A DNA stretch of 34,086 nt, from the NCBI GenBank assembly GCA_029241965.1, contig JAPWVK010000159.1, positions 1 to 34,086 of the forward strand, in the 5' to 3' direction. Shown in pieces: positions 22,344 to 30,460 of this stretch. A program made the position numbers and the translations under genes. A model generated the notes under the pieces. The model searched no databases and was not told the origin of the DNA. It worked only from the letters and a program-made list of their open reading frames with translations. The stretch comes from Candidatus Methanophagales archaeon (lineage in GTDB: Archaea > Halobacteriota > Syntropharchaeia > Alkanophagales > Methanospirareceae). The stretch's first letter is position 1; every line of letters starts with the position of its first letter.

Positions 22344-23801
22344 TTATACCGCTTCTCCCAACACCGACACCGTGGATGTGTCCGTTCCCGACCCTTTCAG
22401 CTCGTATGCCAGATACAAGTCATTGTAAGTTCCTACGGATACTGTTACCCCTGTATCTTTATAGCTACCCCATGACTTTAGAGTAGTCCAGCTACTGACC
22501 GCCCAGGGGCTCGTGTCATCTACGGTTACATTACAGAAATGAACCGGATAACTCTCTATGGCTGAAGACGTATTTGCATCCCTGACGAAGCATGCTAGCG
22601 TTATTGTCTCCCCTACGGTGTAACTATTTTCGTCAGGAGGCAAATCCCATGTTACGTTTGACCAGCCCCACTTAACCACCGACTCATTCTGATAAGAGCT
22701 GTTAGAATTAGATGCATTGTCATAAGTTGTTTCGGTAATATTGTATTCTCCGTCCTCAGGGACGGACAAAGTAACGACAAAAGTTCCATTTGTGGCGTTT
22801 GTAGTTGAATTGACTATCTTTCCTTCGTAAGGCACTTTGTCTATTTTCTTGATGATTACAGGTTTATTATTCTCATCAAGGGCGACCAAAATTCTTCCAT
22901 CCGAAATCTTCTGGTAGATGTTTTCTATCCTTATAAGAGAGAATTTATTTATATACCCGTTGCCAATATTATCAGTGGTGGTAGAAATGTCGGAAGTCGA
23001 AATCAGGTTTAAAGTTCCCACGGGATTGAAGGAAGAGATGGAAGAGCTTCCGGGAATGGAAGAGATGGTTGTAGAATTCATAAGGCTGAAGATTTTCGAG
23101 CATGAATTGAAGAAGTCTAAGGAATTACAGAGGTTCATATTTGAGTCGTTGTCCGCAAAGAGCAAATTGACGCTGGCAGATGCTATTGAACTTGGGGCGA
23201 AAATGAAGGAAGGAATGCTTGAAGAGCTCAAAGAGAAGGGATTACTGTAGATGAGACTGGTTGTGGATGCAAATGAGCTGTTCGCGGGGATAATCGCTAA
23301 AGGTAAGGAATTACAGAGTTGGACGCTGGACATATTATTTTCAGATGAAGTTGAATTGTTCGCACCTTTCATATTGCTTGCCGAATTGGAGAAGAACAGG
23401 GATGAGATAAGGGAAAAGTCAGGATTTTCCCTGAGGGATTTTGATGTGTTCGTTGGCATCCTCAAGTTAAGAGTCGGATTTATCCCTCTGGAGCGGTTTT
23501 TAGCTAAGATTCCGGAGGCTAAGGAGTTGGCACCGCATTTAAAAGATGTCGAATATTTCGCATAAGCATTGAAACTTGATTGCCCAATCTGGACGCAAGA
23601 AAAAGCGTTCAAAAAACAATCTGTAGTCAAGGTGTTCTCAACTCTTGATTTGTTTTCGTTTTTATCCGAGACAGGCCCATAGCCCGCTAAAGAGGTTGAA
23701 GGATATTTTGGATTGACTGAAGTGTAAACCTTATGCTCTGGCGAAAACGTCAGAACTGTTTCGTATCTACTCAAATCCATAAATCTTATTTTTTGCTTCA
23801 T
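22344..23801 (-). CDS. orphan 3' fragment: decayed Hint unit (no Cys1, truncated block F/G) fused to a shortened copy of the giant protein's C-terminal domain; probably a remnant or silent cassette
   Basis: Its ATG overlaps the giant gene's stop (ATGA at 23798-23801). The N-terminus KQKIRFMDLSRYETVLTFSPEHKVY aligns with QKPIKYLEYDY...LLVSPEHKVY. The middle ~230 aa is a Ser-rich translation antisense to TA cassette c. The C-terminal ~190 aa aligns with the giant protein's C-terminus. The last ~100 nt are about 90% identical by eye to 23798-23895. Confidence 0.55.
   Translation of the reverse strand: MKQKIRFMDLSRYETVLTFSPEHKVYTSVNPKYPSTSLAGYGPVSDKNENKSRVENTLTTDCFLNAFSCVQIGQSSFNAYAKYSTSFKCGANSLASGILAKNRSRGINPTLNLRMPTNTSKSLRENPDFSLISSLFFSNSASNMKGANNSTSSENNMSSVQLCNSLPLAIIPANSSFASTTSLIYSNPFSLSSSSIPSFIFAPSSIASASVNLLFADNDSNMNLCNSLDFFNSCSKIFSLMNSTTISSIPGSSSISSFNPVGTLNLISTSDISTTTDNIGNGYINKFSLIRIENIYQKISDGRILVALDENNKPVIIKKIDKVPYEGKIVNSTTNATNGTFVVTLSVPEDGEYNITETTYDNASNSNSSYQNESVVKWGWSNVTWDLPPDENSYTVGETITLACFVRDANTSSAIESYPVHFCNVTVDDTSPWAVSSWTTLKSWGSYKDTGVTVSVGTYNDLYLAYELKGSGTDTSTVSVLGEAV
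22987..23250 (+). CDS. small antitoxin-like protein, cassette c (antisense inside 22344..23801)
   Basis: Starts MSEVEIRFKVPTGLKEEMEEL and ends ...GAKMKEGMLEELKEKGLL. Layout and length match the antitoxins of cassettes a and b. Its stop abuts the PIN start (TAG-ATG). An AT-rich TATA-like ATTTATTTATATA lies about 35-45 nt upstream. Confidence 0.6.
   Translation: MSEVEIRFKVPTGLKEEMEELPGMEEMVVEFIRLKIFEHELKKSKELQRFIFESLSAKSKLTLADAIELGAKMKEGMLEELKEKGLL
23251..23682 (+). pseudogene. PIN-domain (VapC-like) toxin, cassette c, interrupted by an in-frame TAA at 23563-23565
   Basis: Starts MRLVVDANELFAGII.... It reads ...APHLKDVEYFA-stop-ALKLDCPIWTQEKAF...SETGP, compared with cassette b ...SPDPNDVDFFALALKLNCPLWSEDKLL...SLISP. 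The stop replaces a Leu (TTA to TAA). Homology continues in frame to TAG at 23680-23682. Confidence 0.6.
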
Positions 23802-26800
23802 ACCGCTTCTCCCAACACCGACACCGTGGATGTGCCCGTTCCCGACCCTTTCAGCTCGTATGCCAGATACAAGTCTTTGTGTGTTCCTTTGGATACTCTT
23901 ACCCCTGTATCTTTATAGCTACCCCAAGATTTTAGACTAATCCAGCTACCAACAGCCCCGGGGCTCGTGTCATTTGCGGTTACGTTAAACTTCTCGTCAT
24001 TTATTATTGTTGACCAACCGTTCACCTCTTCTACCTTCAGCCAGATCTTGTATTCAGTCGAAGAAGAAGGATTGTAAATTGTAACTACTGGTGAGTTACT
24101 GGTCACATTTTGCGGGTTGCCGCTGCCGTCCGCATTATTGTGTGGGTCAACTACTGTGGCACCAGTTGCACCCGAGAAGTTAATGGAACTGATACTCTGC
24201 GAAGCAGTTTGATTTCTGATTTCAAGTGTCGTTGCGTATGACAACTCTATGGATGTATTGGCTTCATCATCCGCAGTGACGTTATAAAACAGCGTGGCAT
24301 TATCCGTGATATTACATTTTGGATAGTACCATCCTACTGCCACGCCTGATGTATCCCAATCCAGGACGGCATATCCGCTGCTATTCGTGTAATTCAGACC
24401 AAGGTATGTCACGGTAGAGTCAGTCTTGTTATAAAAACGAACCGGATAATTCTCTATGCCCGATGAGGTATTGACATCGCGGACAAGGCATGTTAGCGTT
24501 ATTATCGCACCTGATTCGTAACTACTTCCGCCGGAAGGCGAGCCCCACGTTACGTTTGACCAACCCATCTTAAACACCGATTGATTTTGATACGAGATAT
24601 TATAATTCGATGCGTTATCATACATCTCTACCGACACGTTGTATTTCCCCTTAGCAGCACTTGAATTTAGATAAAAACTCGCATTTACATACGAATTTGG
24701 TGTGTAAGCAGTATCCGACGACGAATTGATGGTCGCAGTAGCGTTGTATATCGTGACCGTGTAGTTCTTTGGATTATCCTCCGTGTACGAGAAGTTGACA
24801 TAAAACTGCTCGCCGCCCTTCTTGTAGATTGGAACGGAAGTTGTAGGCACGTCTATCGTGATAGTCGGTGATTGCGAATCTATGGTGAAGTTCGTACCGA
24901 GCCACGTCTCTGACGTCTCGCCCTCATCGTCTGTTGCCACGCAATGCAACGTATAGAGTCCGGGACTATAATTGGATGCGTTGAACGCTATATCGGCAAT
25001 CCCGCCAGCGGCATCCGCTTCGGTAAAAGTATTGTTTACTATCGAAATAAATGTCTGGTTCGGATAGCACAAAGTCAGATTATGAACCACTGTGCCGCCG
25101 TCCGGATCGGTCGCAACCCCAACACCAATATCGAATATACCGTCATAGCTACCATTCATATCATAGTCCTTTACACCACTGATATTGAAATACCTAATGT
25201 GCGGGACGGTAGGTGGATAGTGCACCAATCTGATGTCGTTTGTAAGCAGCGTTGAATTGCTCCAACTACCCGATGCGTTTGCTGCATACAGCTTCATCTG
25301 GTGCTGCATACCACTTTTAGAGTAGTCGAAAAATAACTTCGGCGTCCATGCCGCCTGCAAAAATGACGAGCCATCATTGGTACTCGTCCATGCAACGTTT
25401 GTTTGCGCAAACGATATGTTCATACCGCTCGTACCATCTACATACGCCAGGCGGTACTCATTGCTTGTAGCTGTCGGAGATCGGAAGTATATGTATCCAT
25501 GCGGTGTTGTGTTTACGTCAGAACCTATAACCCTGCTATTGTTCACACCAATCGTAAAGGTCACGAACGAACTGTTGTACGGCTCGTACGTGTAATCATC
25601 TACTGTTGTGCCAGTGTACGAAGTCAAGTAAGTATAATATGGACTTTCGAGTGGCTTACCGCCAGTGATGTTATACGAGTCGTTTAGGTAGTAAATATCA
25701 AGATTGTTCGATGCTCCCAGATCGGTTGCCTCGAAAGCGATATGTATTTTATAGTCCGAAGAACCTTTAATTGCTTCAGTGTCCCAGAACTTGACCAGAG
25801 CAGCACGGTATCCTGTTGAGCCCTGTTTATAGATGTCATAATATTTGCTAATCTCTTTCTGCATCCGCGTCCTATCTAAGTAATACATGTTCTCAAATAC
25901 AGTATTCTCAACCGTGCCATTCCAGTGCACATACGAGTGCGTGTCATTTACCTTTTGGATAGTAAGCCGGGAAGTGTTTTCATCCGCGCCCGCCCATTTC
26001 CAGACGTTGCCCTCTGTGATGGTGGCATTATCCTCAAAGTTCAAGCGCTGTATTGTAGCATTCCGGTTATCGGCACGTAGAATCTGCTCGTTGCATAAAG
26101 CCCATACCGCAGATTTGTTGTTGCTCGGAACACGGAGTGACCAGTTATAACTATCGAGCACCGAGTCCCAGAGCGTCCAGACGAGCGATACGCTGCTGTT
26201 ATTGAGTGTATGTGTAGCATCCGTAGTAACCAACCAGGTTACGTTGAATGCACCGGTCGAGTTCTCGTAAATCGTAGCCGGCTCCTGCGAGATGAGTTCA
26301 AATGTCGGACAGCCCGCCTGATTGTATGCATAATCGACGTCACCACCAAATCGAAACTCTAATGCGTGTTTGCCCGAAGTTAAAACCTTACTTGTTTCGT
26401 AGCTGGTTTCGTTACAGGAATAATTGTGTATGAATAAGGAATTGTTTCGCCATTGATAATCCAGTGTGCGATTGCCGCATTTCAGGGCAAGCAATTGCAG
26501 GTCATAGTTTGAGTTGCCGCACCAGACAGGCGTTGAGTTTTTACGCCGTATTAAAAGTATGCGGTTCGGGACGGTAACAGAGTAAATCTTGCCGTTATAA
26601 GGGACTTCTTCGATTTTTTTTACTGCTACGGGATTCTGTTCGGAATCGAGGAATACTAACTGTTTGTCGGGTAGCTCGTGGAGTTCCGAGATTTTTAGCA
26701 ATGAATAGGTATTTAAACCGTTCGGATTTATAGTATTAGTGATGACGGTTTCTTTTTCATTCACGGTCACAGGCATCGAGAAGTTATTTAAATACAGCAA

Positions 26801-29800
26801 GTTAGTTTTATTATTGGTGAGAGAAATGGCCGAAATAGTTGTTAAGGTTCCAGAGGATATTGGTATAGAGCTTGGTAGGGTTTCAGAAGAGAATTGGCAA
26901 TTGTTATTCTCAAGATTCCTGAGAAGAGAGCTGGAAGAAATAAGAGGGATCGAAGCGATAGTATCTAAATCAAAACTAACAGAGGAGCAAGCCAAAGAAT
27001 TAGCAGATGAAGTAAGTTTAGCGATAGCTAAAAGACTTCTTGAGAAGTGATTCGAGATGTTATTGGTAGTTGACGCTAATGTCGTATTCTCAGCACTAAT
27101 AAGAAGAGGCAAGCCATTAAGGGTATTTGAGTTGAACAAGCTTCTCATGAAATTTGAATTTATTGCACCAGAGTTCCTGTTCTTTGAGGTGGGTAAAAGA
27201 ATGGATAAAATACTCAAGCTCACAGATTTATCTAAAGAAGAGTTCATAACGGTTTTTTCATTCATTAAGAATGAACTCGAGCTAATTCCTCTTGAAACAT
27301 TTGAAGATAAAGTTGATGAAGCCAAGGAGAGATCACCACACTTGAAGGATATGCCATATGTTGCTTTATCCCTCAAATTCGATTGTAAGATTCTGTCTGG
27401 AGATAAAGGAATAAAGGAATGCTTGCCTGGTAGAGTCATCATACCATCTAAAGCCTTAAGAATTCTATTTGGGAGGACTGCACCATAAACCTTATGCTCA
27501 GGCGAAACCAGCAGTTGACTGCCATCTTCCAGAGTAAGCTCGAACATCGCATCCGAATAGTCGTATTCCAGATATTTAATCGGTTTCTGATTGCAAAAAA
27601 GTTTTGTGTGTTCTTTTGTAATTTGTGGTTTCCTTGTGGTTTCGTTATGCCGTTTCACCAGCACGATGTCGTTCGGGACGTCAACGTCATAAATCTTGCC
27701 GGTATAAGGGACTTCTTCGATTTTTTTTACTGCTACGGGATTCAGCTCGGAGTCAAGGAATACTAACTGTTTGTCTGATAGCTTGTCATAGAGTTCCGAT
27801 ATTTTTAGCAATGAATAAGTATTTAAATACAGCAAGCCAGTCTTATAATTAGGGGCGATAGAAATGTCAGAGTTAGTTGTTGAGGTTCCAGGATTGCTTA
27901 GAGGAGAGGTTGGTAAGCTAGAGCGAGAGATAGAGGAGCTAATATCGTGGGAGGAGAAGCGTAAATTACTCTCTCTGTTCATGGATGAGGTTATGAAAGA
28001 TGCTAAACAGTTGAGCGAAGACGAACTGGTTACACTTGGAAGAGAGATTAAGAAAGGCAGGTTTGAAAAGCTCAAGCAAAGGGGGTTTGTATGAGTGCGG
28101 TTAGTTGCTGACACAACCGAACTCTTCTCGTTCTTCAACGCTCGGTCAAAGGCAAGGGAGTTATCCATAATCCCTGAATTGGAATTACATTCCCCCTCCT
28201 TTTCTTTATATGAACTCAAAGAACATAAATCCAAGATTCTTACGAGTTTCTCGTTGACCGAGACACAGTTTCTATTGATAATGAAGTTGCTTAAGACCGT
28301 TGTAAAAGTTGCTAAAGAGGAAGAATACTCGGATTTTCTATCGGAGGCTAAGGAAATATCTCCAGACCCTAACGATGTAGATTTCTTTGCGTTGGCTCTG
28401 AAACTGAACTGTCCGCTTTGGTCAGAGGATAAGCTGCTAAAGGGGCAGTCTAAGGTTAAGGTACTCTCTACAAAAGATTTACTTGAACTTTTATCTCTCA
28501 TCAGCCCATAAACCTTATGCTCAGGCGAAACCAGCAGTTTACTGCCATCCGCCAGAGTAAGCTTGAACATCGCATCCGAATAGTCGTATTCCAGATATTT
28601 AATCGGTTTCTGCCATTCCTGCTCTCCCGTCTCCTGGTTTAAAGTCAGAACTTCTTCTTCTGGTTCTAAATCTTTGAACAGTTTCCAGCCTTCTTTTGTT
28701 AGAACCTCGGTTTCTTCGTCGTAACATTCGTACGGTTGGTTAGTCCAGGTCGTCCCGTTAACCGCGGTTATAGTCAAATCCGCAGTTCCTTCCGTCTCGA
28801 ACTTGACAGACCAGTTTCCACCTACTGCTGGATAAGACTGGACATTAATTATACTAATCGGATCAACAGCAACATACCAGGGTCTTGCCTCTGTAAATGT
28901 TTCTGAATCATAACTAATTTCCGCAGTACCTAAAGCGTACAAATAAGGCCACACAGGAGGAACTGCGTAAGAATAACTGACAGATGTTTTCTTGCCAATT
29001 AAATCTTTATTCCAGGTTATTGTCTTTGTATCGTCTTCCTGCATAACCGTAGCGGCATCCGTTGAATACACATCGAACTCAGCAGGCACAAATTCTTTTA
29101 ACGTTACGGATTCCGCATCAGTAAAGCATTCTACGTCAATCCTGACCTCAAACCTGTCCTGCAGTGTGGGGTCTATCTTGCTTTGTGTCGTTCTTATGAT
29201 GTCGAATTCATACTCCGGCTGAACCCGGAAATACGTATTGAAGAATACTTCAACGTTGTCAATTAAACCCGTGACTGAGATCGAGTGATTACCCTCTATT
29301 TCCGTTGGGTAATCCAGGTTATAAATGCCAGATTCGCTACTTGCGGTAATCGTGCCATCAGCGGTGGAATAAATCGTTTCCTCGTTATCGGGATTGTTTA
29401 CGGTTAAATAAAGATCGGCATTGCTGACTGAGTGCCCTGCTTTATCCAGGACAACGATAACGAATTCCACGGTTTCACCGGGTTTGTAGATGCTTTTTTT
29501 GGTGTTTACGGAAACAAGGCCCCACGGGAATTCGGATTCTAAAACGTAAACGTGCTCGTCCTTCACTAACTCCACACTTAATGTATATACGCCCACTCGG
29601 AATGCTCGTTCCTTAGGCAATTTAATTGCGAATTTGCCTTCGCCTTTTTTCGCTATTTCGGGCGCGATGTCTGTTAGTGCACCCGAAGAATCATAAACAA
29701 AAGTCTCTATCGTTTCGTTTTCTGTCACCCAGCGTTTCAATGCTTTTTGGGGTGCGCCAATAGCAGCTTCCTCACTTACAGTGCTAAGCATTTCCCGCGA

Positions 29801-30460
29801 TGCGTTTTCGGTAACATTTTCATTAAAAGTTTTCTGCGAAGCGTTTTTGATAAAACTTTTATTAAAAGTTTTATATTCAAACGAAAAAGTCGGTTCCTCA
29901 TCCAGGGAATAAGACTCTTTGTTTGCAATTAGTTTTGGCGGTTCAATCACGGATTCCGTAACATTAATATTACGTGATTCACCTGTTGATTCGTTAATCG
30001 TATAATTCAAACCGATGACGGAGGTATTATCAGTTGCATTTTCCGGTGTTTGTATCGTAACGCCCGAGGCATTACCTGTTGTATTATCCGTTGTATTTTC
30101 CGGTGTTTGTAACGTAACGCCCGAGGCATTACCTGTTGTACTATTATTAGTTGCAGTTTCAGGTGTTTGTATCGTAATGCCCGTGGCATTATCAGTTGTG
30201 TTATCAGTTACATTATCAGGTGATAGTATCGGATTTATCGGTGCCGTTACGTCCGTAATATTTTCTGACGGGGTATCATTAAGGTTAGTTACGTATGATG
30301 TAATGTTTTCAGGCAGCGTTGTGTTCTCGTTTTGTGTTGCACCAAAAGCGATTAAAGGCACGATAAGCAAAGCTATGACAATTGTAATGCGTGCGCTCTT
30401 CCAGTTTGTTTTTGCTCTTAGCATCTTTTCGCAGGTCAAGCTTCCTTTTCTATCATACAT
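23798..30460 (-). CDS. giant (2220 aa) secreted, sequon-rich surface protein interrupted by a composite Hint/intein region
   Basis: Single uninterrupted ORF. The N-terminal hydrophobic signal/anchor is ARITIVIALLIVPLIAFGA. It has three tandem ~19-aa repeats (GNASGVTxQTPENxTDNT) and very many N-x-S/T sequons. It is beta-rich throughout. The intein blocks lie at aa 579-1308. It is tightly packed with upstream genes: 3-nt gap, then an ATGA overlap. Confidence 0.85.
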   Translation of the reverse strand: MYDRKGSLTCEKMLRAKTNWKSARITIVIALLIVPLIAFGATQNENTTLPENITSYVTNLNDTPSENITDVTAPINPILSPDNVTDNTTDNATGITIQTPETATNNSTTGNASGVTLQTPENTTDNTTGNASGVTIQTPENATDNTSVIGLNYTINESTGESRNINVTESVIEPPKLIANKESYSLDEEPTFSFEYKTFNKSFIKNASQKTFNENVTENASREMLSTVSEEAAIGAPQKALKRWVTENETIETFVYDSSGALTDIAPEIAKKGEGKFAIKLPKERAFRVGVYTLSVELVKDEHVYVLESEFPWGLVSVNTKKSIYKPGETVEFVIVVLDKAGHSVSNADLYLTVNNPDNEETIYSTADGTITASSESGIYNLDYPTEIEGNHSISVTGLIDNVEVFFNTYFRVQPEYEFDIIRTTQSKIDPTLQDRFEVRIDVECFTDAESVTLKEFVPAEFDVYSTDAATVMQEDDTKTITWNKDLIGKKTSVSYSYAVPPVWPYLYALGTAEISYDSETFTEARPWYVAVDPISIINVQSYPAVGGNWSVKFETEGTADLTITAVNGTTWTNQPYECYDEETEVLTKEGWKLFKDLEPEEEVLTLNQETGEQEWQKPIKYLEYDYSDAMFKLTLADGSKLLVSPEHKVYGLMRDKSSSKSFVESTLTLDCPFSSLSSDQSGQFSFRANAKKSTSLGSGDISLASDRKSEYSSSLATFTTVLSNFIINRNCVSVNEKLVRILDLCSLSSYKEKEGECNSNSGIMDNSLAFDRALKNEKSSVVSATNRTHTNPLCLSFSNLPFLISLPSVTSSSSLNCLASFITSSMNRESNLRFSSHDISSSISRSSLPTSPLSNPGTSTTNSDISIAPNYKTGLLYLNTYSLLKISELYDKLSDKQLVFLDSELNPVAVKKIEEVPYTGKIYDVDVPNDIVLVKRHNETTRKPQITKEHTKLFCNQKPIKYLEYDYSDAMFELTLEDGSQLLVSPEHKVYGAVLPNRILKALDGMMTLPGKHSFIPLSPDRILQSNLRDKATYGISFKCGDLSLASSTLSSNVSRGISSSSFLMNEKTVMNSSLDKSVSLSILSILLPTSKNRNSGAINSNFMRSLFNSNTLNGLPLLISAENTTLASTTNNISNHFSRSLLAIAKLTSSANSLACSSVSFDLDTIASIPLISSSSLLRNLENNNCQFSSETLPSSIPISSGTLTTISAISLTNNKTNLLYLNNFSMPVTVNEKETVITNTINPNGLNTYSLLKISELHELPDKQLVFLDSEQNPVAVKKIEEVPYNGKIYSVTVPNRILLIRRKNSTPVWCGNSNYDLQLLALKCGNRTLDYQWRNNSLFIHNYSCNETSYETSKVLTSGKHALEFRFGGDVDYAYNQAGCPTFELISQEPATIYENSTGAFNVTWLVTTDATHTLNNSSVSLVWTLWDSVLDSYNWSLRVPSNNKSAVWALCNEQILRADNRNATIQRLNFEDNATITEGNVWKWAGADENTSRLTIQKVNDTHSYVHWNGTVENTVFENMYYLDRTRMQKEISKYYDIYKQGSTGYRAALVKFWDTEAIKGSSDYKIHIAFEATDLGASNNLDIYYLNDSYNITGGKPLESPYYTYLTSYTGTTVDDYTYEPYNSSFVTFTIGVNNSRVIGSDVNTTPHGYIYFRSPTATSNEYRLAYVDGTSGMNISFAQTNVAWTSTNDGSSFLQAAWTPKLFFDYSKSGMQHQMKLYAANASGSWSNSTLLTNDIRLVHYPPTVPHIRYFNISGVKDYDMNGSYDGIFDIGVGVATDPDGGTVVHNLTLCYPNQTFISIVNNTFTEADAAGGIADIAFNASNYSPGLYTLHCVATDDEGETSETWLGTNFTIDSQSPTITIDVPTTSVPIYKKGGEQFYVNFSYTEDNPKNYTVTIYNATATINSSSDTAYTPNSYVNASFYLNSSAAKGKYNVSVEMYDNASNYNISYQNQSVFKMGWSNVTWGSPSGGSSYESGAIITLTCLVRDVNTSSGIENYPVRFYNKTDSTVTYLGLNYTNSSGYAVLDWDTSGVAVGWYYPKCNITDNATLFYNVTADDEANTSIELSYATTLEIRNQTASQSISSINFSGATGATVVDPHNNADGSGNPQNVTSNSPVVTIYNPSSSTEYKIWLKVEEVNGWSTIINDEKFNVTANDTSPGAVGSWISLKSWGSYKDTGVRVSKGTHKDLYLAYELKGSGTGTSTVSVLGEAV
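26826..27050 (+). CDS. small antitoxin-like protein, cassette a (antisense inside the giant ORF)
   Basis: Starts MAEIVVKVPEDIGIELGRV and ends ...SKSKLTEEQAKELADEVSLAIAKRLLEK. The start is set at the internal Met (26826) by analogy with cassettes b and c. TATTTAAATA at 26785-26794 and a GGTGA SD-like motif precede it. It ends 6 nt before the PIN start. Confidence 0.65.
   Translation: MAEIVVKVPEDIGIELGRVSEENWQLLFSRFLRRELEEIRGIEAIVSKSKLTEEQAKELADEVSLAIAKRLLEK
27057..27488 (+). CDS. PIN-domain (VapC-like) toxin, cassette a
   Basis: 143 aa with a PIN acidic quartet layout: LLVVDANVVFSAL (Asp), FFEVGKR (Glu), SPHLKDMPYVALSL (Asp), KILSGDKGI (Asp). Its last codons overlap, antisense, the HKVYG block-B codons of Hint unit 2. 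Confidence 0.8.
   Translation: MLLVVDANVVFSALIRRGKPLRVFELNKLLMKFEFIAPEFLFFEVGKRMDKILKLTDLSKEEFITVFSFIKNELELIPLETFEDKVDEAKERSPHLKDMPYVALSLKFDCKILSGDKGIKECLPGRVIIPSKALRILFGRTAP
27864..28094 (+). CDS. small antitoxin-like protein, cassette b (antisense inside the giant ORF)
   Basis: Starts MSELVVEVPGLLRGEVGKLEREIEEL and ends ...QLSEDELVTLGREIKKGRFEKLKQRGFV. TATTTAAATA lies at 27820-27829, about 35 nt upstream. Its stop TGA directly abuts the GTG start of the PIN gene. Confidence 0.65.
   Translation: MSELVVEVPGLLRGEVGKLEREIEELISWEEKRKLLSLFMDEVMKDAKQLSEDELVTLGREIKKGRFEKLKQRGFV
28095..28511 (+). CDS. PIN-domain (VapC-like) toxin, cassette b (GTG start)
   Basis: 138 aa: RLVADTTELFSFF (Asp), SLYELKEHK (Glu), SPDPNDVDFFALAL (Asp), PLWSEDKLL (Asp). 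The layout matches cassette a although the sequence is divergent. Its 3' end overlaps, antisense, the HKVYG codons of Hint unit 1. Confidence 0.75.
   Translation: MRLVADTTELFSFFNARSKARELSIIPELELHSPSFSLYELKEHKSKILTSFSLTETQFLLIMKLLKTVVKVAKEEEYSDFLSEAKEISPDPNDVDFFALALKLNCPLWSEDKLLKGQSKVKVLSTKDLLELLSLISP
30039..30215 (-). repeat. three tandem 57-60-nt coding repeats in the giant protein N-terminus
   Basis: The plus-strand unit is TTTTCCGGTGTTTGTATCGTAACGCCCGAGGCATTACCTGTTGTATTATCCGTTGTA, repeated at about 30039, 30096 and 30156. It encodes T(D/G)NxxG(I/V)TxQTPExxTxNx(T/S) repeats rich in sequons. Confidence 0.8.

Follow-up and report, generated by a model that had tools for sequence, protein, structure and literature searches.

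A 17-nucleotide (nt) motif, TATTTAAATACAGCAAG, occurs twice on the plus strand of a 34,086-nt contig from a Candidatus Methanophagales archaeon (JAPWVK010000159.1; the whole stretch is hereafter called the window), at 27820–27836 and at 26785–26801 (repeat family D10). Each copy lies upstream of a two-gene toxin-antitoxin (TA) operon that is written antisense within an intein, which is itself encoded by a giant minus-strand gene. A first, sequence-only reading of the window had identified the 17-mer and both of its positions correctly and had proposed that it was a promoter written inside intein codons. We conclude that the 17-mer is very probably the core promoter, comprising a TFB recognition element (BRE) and a TATA box, of a PIN_2-type TA operon lying antisense in an intein. 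Comparison across about 50 independent relatives strongly supports this promoter reading. We also lean, with less assurance, toward regarding these inteins as composite selfish elements of a previously undescribed class, with opposite-strand, promoter-bearing TA operons filling the endonuclease slot.

Three cassettes in the window, designated a, b and c, carry the predicted promoter. For cassette b (27814–27829, plus strand), it consists of a weak BRE-like AATAAGTA and the TATA box TTTAAATA at 27822–27829, whose bases read Y-L-N (TAT TTA AAT) on the minus strand. An AT-rich proximal element, TTATAATT (27843–27850), and AGGGG (27851–27855), which resembles a Shine-Dalgarno (SD) sequence, follow in the plus-strand sequence (27843–27855). 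Cassette a has the same TATA box, TTTAAATA, at 26787–26794 on the plus strand and an SD-like GGTGA at 26816–26820; both SD-like motifs are present as first described. The distance from the first T of the TATA box to the antitoxin ATG is 42 nt in cassette b (27822 to 27864) and 39 nt in cassette a (26787 to 26826), whereas the 32–35 nt given earlier holds when measured from the middle of the 17-mer. Cassette c, whose TATA box had been missed, has the variant TTTATATA at 22948–22955 (plus strand), reading Y-I-N on the minus strand, with an SD-like GGTGGT at 22977–22982. It lies 39 nt before the ATG at 22987, a spacing kept despite the 38–40% identity of its PIN protein to those of a and b. Between 22300 and 30500, these three TATA boxes are the only plus-strand TTTAWATA motifs.

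To place this element in a wider context, we compared the window with related inteins. When intein b was used as a protein query, 16 relatives were retrieved, several of them with similar low-complexity linkers; in three of these relatives, the DNA carried PIN_2 or ParE-type cassettes in antisense. Scanning genomes with an alignment of Hint-N yielded 78 loci, mostly from DPANN archaea (Woese-, Pace-, Nano- and Aenigmarchaeota), Methanosarcinales and Altiarchaeales. Scripted pairing of Hint-N and Hint-C matches gave 59 inteins from 46 sources, with linkers of 537–1860 nt filled by antisense gene pairs. Their cargo represents at least five TA families: PIN_2 plus antitoxin (Pfam PF10130), ParE/RelE plus antitoxin (PF05016), DUF433 plus DUF5615/Mut7-C (PF04255 and PF18480), PIN plus antitoxin (PF01850), and a DUF4258-like protein plus DUF2283 (PF10049 for the DUF2283 partner).

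Exact matches to TTTAWATA on the cassette strand numbered 49 in the linkers of the 59 inteins (49,898 nt), compared with 9.1 expected from dinucleotide shuffles. All 49 lay upstream of a cassette's first gene and none lay inside a TA gene; our script had flagged two placements otherwise, owing solely to start-codon assignment. Nine motifs were far from Hint-C, and each of these stood 24–58 nt before the start of the next open reading frame (ORF), including the promoters predicted for second cassettes in tandem arrays. The motif was found with five different TA families and was absent from the cassette-free mini-inteins L014, L029 and P0006 of the same family. These counts bear directly on the idea that the 17-mer is a chance AT-rich string that was duplicated together with its flanks. 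The two copies in a and b are indeed a duplication, and TTTAWATA shows only a mild excess over the whole window (13 matches versus 6 expected). The 49 out of 49 related-linker matches at promoter positions, together with the independent variant at the same spacing in cassette c, effectively refute it.

The distance from the start of the TATA box to the ATG fell into three classes. In 23 cases it was 29–33 nt, at exactly 30 nt in 15 of them, with no SD motif, which is the geometry of a leaderless mRNA. Eight cases, the class to which the window belongs, had 39–42 nt and GGTGA or GAGGT, and the remaining 18 had 46–67 nt (mode 55) and mostly GGAGG. A one-sided, BRE-like RAAAGA stood just upstream of the TATA box, with A at positions -5, -4 and -3 in 43, 41 and 38 of the 49 cases, respectively. 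The archaeal box A, TTTAWATA, is centred at about -26/-27. By this comparison, transcription would start at about 26809–26817 (a), 27844–27852 (b) and 22970–22978 (c), in line with the starts estimated earlier. An ATTATTA-like block at the matching place in L001, L002, L003, L040, L047 and L025 sits where a proximal promoter element or the transcription start site (TSS) would be expected.

Several observations weigh against the promoter assignment. The 17-mers of a and b count as one observation, being shared through duplicated flanks. With a weak BRE in the window (AATAAGTA, AGAAGTTA and also AGAATTTA) and a perfectly palindromic TATA core, TATTTAAATA, the direction of the promoter rests on the relatives. 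If transcription started 30 nt from the beginning of the TATA box, the SD-like motif would lie at the extreme 5' end of the mRNA. Calibration of the TATA-to-TSS distance on the regions upstream of the tRNA-Leu and tRNA-Ala genes in the window was ambiguous. In the relatives, start codons were set by rule (the first ATG), a choice that could make the spacing classes tighter or looser, and promoter activity and TSS positions are inferred from comparison. Separately, a scan for sigma-70 promoters and hairpin terminators was discarded as not applicable to archaea, and its match TTTAAA-16-TATAAT at 27822–27849 was treated as coincidental with the TATA box and the proximal element.

The bases of the 17-mers are also codons of the host gene, reading TAT-TTA-AAT within GLLYLNT and NLLYLNN of its 2220-amino-acid (aa) ORF. 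The sequence-only reading had described this LLYLN(T/N) as a conserved intein segment. The translation is right, but the segment is not conserved: it is absent from the mini-inteins, and the peptide varies. We therefore weighed whether LLYLN is kept for intein folding or splicing, with its resemblance to a TATA box incidental. It does adjoin the first conserved Hint-C strand (YSLLKISEL), and Y-L-N recurs in L001, L002, L040, L047, L017 and L023. At this point, though, mini-inteins of the same family have unrelated residues (SIEGNN in L014, GVDKQD in L029 and KADYEKE in P0006), and half of the cassette-bearing inteins encode [FY]-K instead. Across the 49 TATA motifs, the overlying peptide was [ILV]-[FY]-K in 27 cases and Y/H/F-[LIK]-[NK] in 22, and the third register, which creates a stop codon (ATT-TAA), was never seen.

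The position of the motif speaks against a structural role as well. Its distance to the first Hint-C strand ranges between 3 and 79 nt, and in second cassettes it lies hundreds of nucleotides from Hint-C, far from any Hint segment. An alignment with the KlbA intein puts the position in a loop after block B. The codons chosen are always those that form a TATA box, whereas Y-L-N elsewhere in the window is encoded by TACCTGAAC, TATCTGAAT, TACCTAAAC or TATCTAAAT and never by TATTTAAAT. Retention of LLYLN for the fold is thus very improbable, and we rejected it as a fold-conserved block: the motif travels with the cassette and its peptide changes with the register. These comparisons place the constraint on the DNA: the promoter determines which peptide is encoded, and all that the intein frame requires is freedom from stops. 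Synonymous recoding of Y-L-N would destroy the TATA box and leave the intein unchanged.

A different function for the palindromic TATTTAAATA would be that of a recombination or insertion site at the cassette boundary, conserved for cassette exchange. Homology between a and b is lost just inside the antitoxin gene and regained exactly at the PIN stop codon, the two PIN proteins are 30% identical compared with 87–96% for the flanks, and a 75-nt insertion in cassette a is bounded by the direct repeat TATTTAAA. A recombination site, by contrast, would need neither a fixed 30-nt distance to an SD-less ATG, nor an SD motif at longer distances, nor a one-sided RAAAGA. The variants TTTAAATA, TTTATATA, TTTTTATA and TTTATAAA fit the degeneracy of a TATA box and not the site of a specific recombinase. 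We consider this explanation unlikely as a replacement for the promoter, and the two roles are not mutually exclusive.

The insertion itself is found only in cassette a. It adds 25 codons in frame relative to b, and the repeat that bounds it is 8 nt long. A decayed distal copy of the TATA box (TATTTAAAcc, 26711–26720) and the insertion together span 26711–26792 on the plus strand, as seen by alignment and in repeats D8 and D10. The insertion leaves the decayed copy beside Hint-C and the intact TATA box 39 nt before the ATG. Two plus-strand runs of eight T (26614–26621 and 27721–27728) correspond to the K-K-I codons in the Hint-C segment AVKKIEE. Each precedes the TATA-like element nearest Hint-C in its cassette by about 100 nt; the distance to the functional TATA box of cassette a is about 170 nt. 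They could be oligo-T terminators for transcripts from the preceding cassette.

We next consider how two coding strands are reconciled. All six plus-strand starts in the window (26826, 27057, 27864, 28095, 22987 and 23251) fall on minus-strand codon position 2, as had been noted. In this phase, position 3 pairs with position 3 (wobble-on-wobble) and positions 1 and 2 swap, so an antisense stop can arise only from Y|TA or T|CA across a codon boundary; this part of the earlier argument is correct by construction. The intein frame has no stop across any cassette in the window, compared with 9–19 in each of the other two antisense frames. Across the 59 linkers, it has no stop in 48,954 nt (16,318 codons), where the background antisense density predicts about 547.

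The claim that all cassettes share one phase proved narrower than proposed. It holds for the six starts in the window and for 39 of the 41 PIN-sized genes of PIN_2-type cassettes. In sister inteins, however, ParE, DUF433 and PF01850 PIN genes are codon-on-codon and one DUF4258-like gene is in the third phase, all with open intein frames, which rules out a universal single-phase rule. Among PIN_2 loci in about 700 kb of fetched DNA, 54 out of 55 adjoin Hint domains and one lies away from them. This proximity, together with PIN identities of 30–40% within the window and 67% between cassette a and L047, points to descent from an embedded ancestor. The shared PIN_2 phase was thus probably inherited from an ancestor that was already embedded and did not arise by three independent in-phase insertions.

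Across the family, the recoding constraint that had been put forward is genuine. Among background genes, antisense stops were fewest in the wobble-on-wobble phase (3.35 per 100 codons versus 4.0 and 5.9 in the other phases). The phase-2 embedded genes contained none of the stop-making dicodons, compared with 92 expected from their amino acid sequence and local codon usage and 63 predicted by within-gene synonymous shuffles. Phase-3 embedded genes likewise had none versus 71.5 expected, because they avoid TTA, CTA and TCA altogether. Tyrosine accounted for 1.14% of residues when the embedded genes were in phase 2 and 3.06% when they were in phase 3, with 3.77% in background genes; the background and phase-3 genes served as the comparison, free-standing PIN_2 homologs amounting to one locus in the roughly 700 kb. 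In the window by itself the dicodon count is weak, with 3.6 stops expected and none seen (joint probability of zero, about 0.014). Its TA genes have 17 Tyr, His or Gln codons out of 622, and eight of the 17 follow W, E or K, whose codons in this place can never make an antisense stop. In the window, the constraint is met largely by protein composition, and codon choice adds a weak signal.

The host gene (23798–30460, minus strand) encodes a 2220-aa surface protein rich in N-X-S/T, as judged from the ORF list and its translation and from Pfam matches to MG2 and Intein_splicing. The protein has a signal or transmembrane N terminus, an MG2 domain and many N-X-S/T sequons. Its composite intein runs from Cys579 to Asn1316 (26513–28726, minus strand), boundaries drawn from motif positions, the C-terminal consensus of the family, PF14890 and the KlbA structure 2JMZ. 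The Pfam match to PF14890 (E = 3.5e-9) exceeds the curated cut-off, and the nearest solved structure is the Methanocaldococcus jannaschii KlbA mini-intein 2JMZ (E = 9e-4). The N-terminal Cys579 (CYDEETEVLT) is present, and block B contains SPEH at residues 645–648. The intein ends in VWCGN|S (residues 1312–1317, with the +1 Ser at 26510–26512) and its penultimate residue is Gly, not His; the ending ...GN|[CST] is common to the relatives P0010 and P0012–P0016, including a ThyX intein. In the insert-free host homologs P0017, P0018, P0019, P0021 and P0022, ...TITAVNGT.. is joined directly to ..DL.FL..CG....

In order, the composite intein comprises Hint-N, cassette b, partial Hint-C and Hint-N copies, cassette a and a terminal Hint-C. 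The motif map places the Hint-N half (CYDEETEVLT...SPEHKVYG) at 28505–28726 and the terminal Hint-C half (YSLLKISEL...VWCGN) at 26513–26707, both on the minus strand. The partial copies between the cassettes (27482–27817, minus strand; motif map and repeats D4 and D5, with 87% and 96% identity) are an internal Hint-C copy at 27644–27817 without the WCGN end, a junction and a partial Hint-N copy at 27482–27586. These internal copies might hinder folding. Translation of the antisense linker gives an S/L-rich, low-complexity sequence. That the window intein splices is inferred from the stop-free frame across the 59 inteins. Exact-product look-ups returned no record for the giant host protein or for PIN a, and the nearest named protein relatives are proteins from metagenome-assembled genomes (MAGs) of Methanosarcinales. 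The partial Hint copies between the cassettes are 87–96% identical to the terminal halves, whereas identity between the enclosed TA genes is only about 30%. This pattern suggests that intein alleles with different cassettes have exchanged sequence by unequal recombination or gene conversion; L003 has a similar internal Hint remnant. In the part of the giant gene encoding the N terminus, 29968–30231 holds four tandem repeats of 57–60 nt (family D1), T/N-rich units such as TPENTTDNTTGNASGVTIQ.

All TA genes of the window lie on the plus strand. Cassette b encodes an antitoxin of 76 aa (27864–28094), which has no Pfam match and fits the antitoxins of about 39 related PIN_2 cassettes in position and size, and a PIN_2 toxin of 138 aa with a GTG start (28095–28511; PF10130, E = 2.7e-20). 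Cassette a encodes a 74-aa antitoxin (26826–27050) with 64% identity to that of L047 and a 143-aa PIN_2 toxin (27057–27488; PF10130, E = 8.4e-22), whose 67% match in L047 is likewise an intein-embedded PIN. In cassette c, the 87-aa antitoxin ORF (22987–23250) is intact and the PIN_2 toxin (23251–23685; PF10130, E = 2e-9 on the first 104 aa) is a pseudogene, broken by an in-frame TAA at 23563–23565, past which homology continues. Loss of the toxin with retention of the antitoxin and the TATA box fits the usual order of decay. None of the window antitoxins had a significant Pfam match. In all three cassettes, the antitoxin gene (74–87 aa) ends 0–6 nt before the PIN start and in the same frame.

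The stop codon of PIN b (TAA, 28509–28511) sits within the V-Y codons of block B, and the cassette therefore fills the cargo slot of the intein exactly. The flanks of a and b are duplicated at 80–96% identity (repeats D4, D5, D7, D8 and D10). Cassette c lies opposite a truncated, 485-aa paralog ORF (22344–23801, minus strand; repeats D2 and D3) with a dead intein remnant, which lacks Cys1 and blocks F and G and whose frame is still stop-free across the cassette. The start of this paralog ORF overlaps the stop of the giant gene (ATGA).

Together, these data suggest how the element might work. The TA operon lies opposite the intein, in the slot where canonical inteins hold a homing endonuclease. 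The 17-mer would comprise the TATA box TTTAAATA together with a weak BRE and the first bases of the AT-rich proximal element, and transcription would begin about 22–30 nt beyond the first T of the TATA box, leaving a short leader with a GGTGA-type SD. The host protein can be made only if the ribosome reads the whole intein, in which every cassette base is also part of an intein codon; because the ribosome must read through, the cassette, promoter included, has to stay free of intein-frame stops. A TATA box fits an open antisense frame in only two of three registers, TAT-TTA/ATA-AAT (Y-L/I-N, used in the window) and TTT/TAT-AAA ([FY]-K). Wobble-on-wobble is the antisense phase with the lowest cost, since only Tyr, His and Gln codons can give rise to stops, and these residues are depleted in embedded genes and preceded by safe codons. 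Splicing would remove the antisense-encoded filler from the host protein, and the TA module would stabilise the element as an addiction module.

TA-bearing inteins are carried by giant surface-protein genes in DPANN archaea and Methanosarcinales. If the composite-element proposal is true, the TA module makes the intein addictive, taking the place of homing in its persistence; the intein renders the insertion harmless by splicing out an antisense "junk" peptide; and selection acts on both strands over 0.6–1.9 kb, the BRE/TATA promoter included. The same layout raised the possibility that the TA transcript also regulates the giant host gene in antisense, through head-on transcription or an RNA duplex. 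For each cassette, the TA mRNA would be fully complementary to 0.65–0.7 kb of the host mRNA, and the same arrangement is seen in the 59 inteins. Its conservation can, however, be explained without regulation, and the host genes of related inteins are diverse (LamG, DUF2341 and MG2 proteins). We regard such a regulatory role as rather doubtful.

The closest published analogue that we found is the cyanobacterial dnaX intein, in which a LAGLIDADG endonuclease is encoded out of frame (+2) on the same strand, an arrangement read as secondary invasion of a mini-intein; there, the intein frame is merely kept open and the cargo frame is under purifying selection. In both systems, a cargo gene overlaps the intein linker in another reading frame. 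The family described here differs in having a two-gene TA operon on the opposite strand with its own predicted BRE/TATA promoter inside the ORF, in drawing on at least five TA families and in stacking cassettes in tandem. It shares with canonical inteins and KlbA (2JMZ) the Hint fold and the placement of cargo between blocks B and F. Unlike in those inteins, the cargo does not encode an endonuclease and does not belong to the intein polypeptide, and the S/L-rich linker is an antisense by-product. Other members of the same intein family have in-frame LAGLIDADG domains (P0010 and P0013–P0016).

Gene order, sizes, coupling and Pfam domains are those of type II TA modules (VapBC-like PIN_2, ParDE/RelBE, DUF433-DUF5615 and DUF4258-DUF2283), which act as addiction modules of mobile elements. 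Unlike the usual modules, these lie wholly within the ORF of another gene, with codons and composition shaped to keep the opposite strand readable. The 8-mer, the purine-rich BRE seen in the relatives, the proximal element and, in SD-less cassettes, the 30-nt distance from TATA to ATG resemble archaeal BRE/TATA promoters and leaderless mRNAs; unlike archaeal promoters generally, the cassette promoter is translated in an ORF of the other strand and is limited to two of three registers. A TA component expressed from within another ORF is also known from Rpn nucleases, whose RpnS antitoxin arises from an internal start on the same strand and in the same frame (PMC10327210). RpnS is part of the toxin itself, whereas the cassettes are complete foreign operons antisense in an unrelated host gene.

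A full-text literature search in one library found no description of opposite-strand or other natural TA cargo in inteins, which is absence of evidence only. An extended antiparallel overlap in a prokaryotic genome is usually written off as an artefact, and gene callers either merge such a region into one giant ORF or call the TA genes only. The 59 cases provide 0.6–1.9 kb each that is constrained on both strands, by function on one and by readability on the other, with what appears to be a complete promoter embedded in translated sequence. They suggest how endonuclease-free inteins could persist, through addiction by TA cargo, and how TA modules could colonise genes harmlessly, with splicing erasing the insertion.

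Further variation was apparent among the relatives. Several inteins of the family often occupy one host gene (four in L016 and three in L059), and two cassettes are stacked in the linkers of L007, L018, L024, L031 and L033. A few loci binned as bacterial MAGs (Saccharibacteria, Hydrothermota and Omnitrophota) carry the archaeal-type promoter, so misbinning is possible.

The intein-bearing ORFs also contain, on the sense strand, tRNA-like genes of 83–92 nt detected by ARAGORN, mostly Ile-GAT. These were found in L016 (697–784, 6411–6494, 6847–6931, 8601–8684 and 9885–9970), L059 (1731–1815, 5883–5967 and 9240–9323), L034 (5094–5177, 5355–5439 and 5707–5789), L024 (3793–3876), L029 (6687–6770), L035 (5884–5966) and L049 (670–761). 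Exactly one frame is open through each of the elements (15 out of 15), and it is the Hint frame; two elements lie within intein linkers. About 9–10 codons upstream, most of the ORFs read Y-[LI]-N and a few read Y-L-K or Y-L-S, which would appear to be a sense-strand TATA box written in codons. There is also a second insertion hotspot within Hint-N (P0004 and P0006; 759–3389 in L002). At this hotspot, CYDNETEILT is followed by a long insert and a restart at K-C-Y-x-E-E-W-K-L-F-K-D-L, and the insert ends in a stretch whose translation resembles that of a tRNA T-arm (…GFESRPG…).

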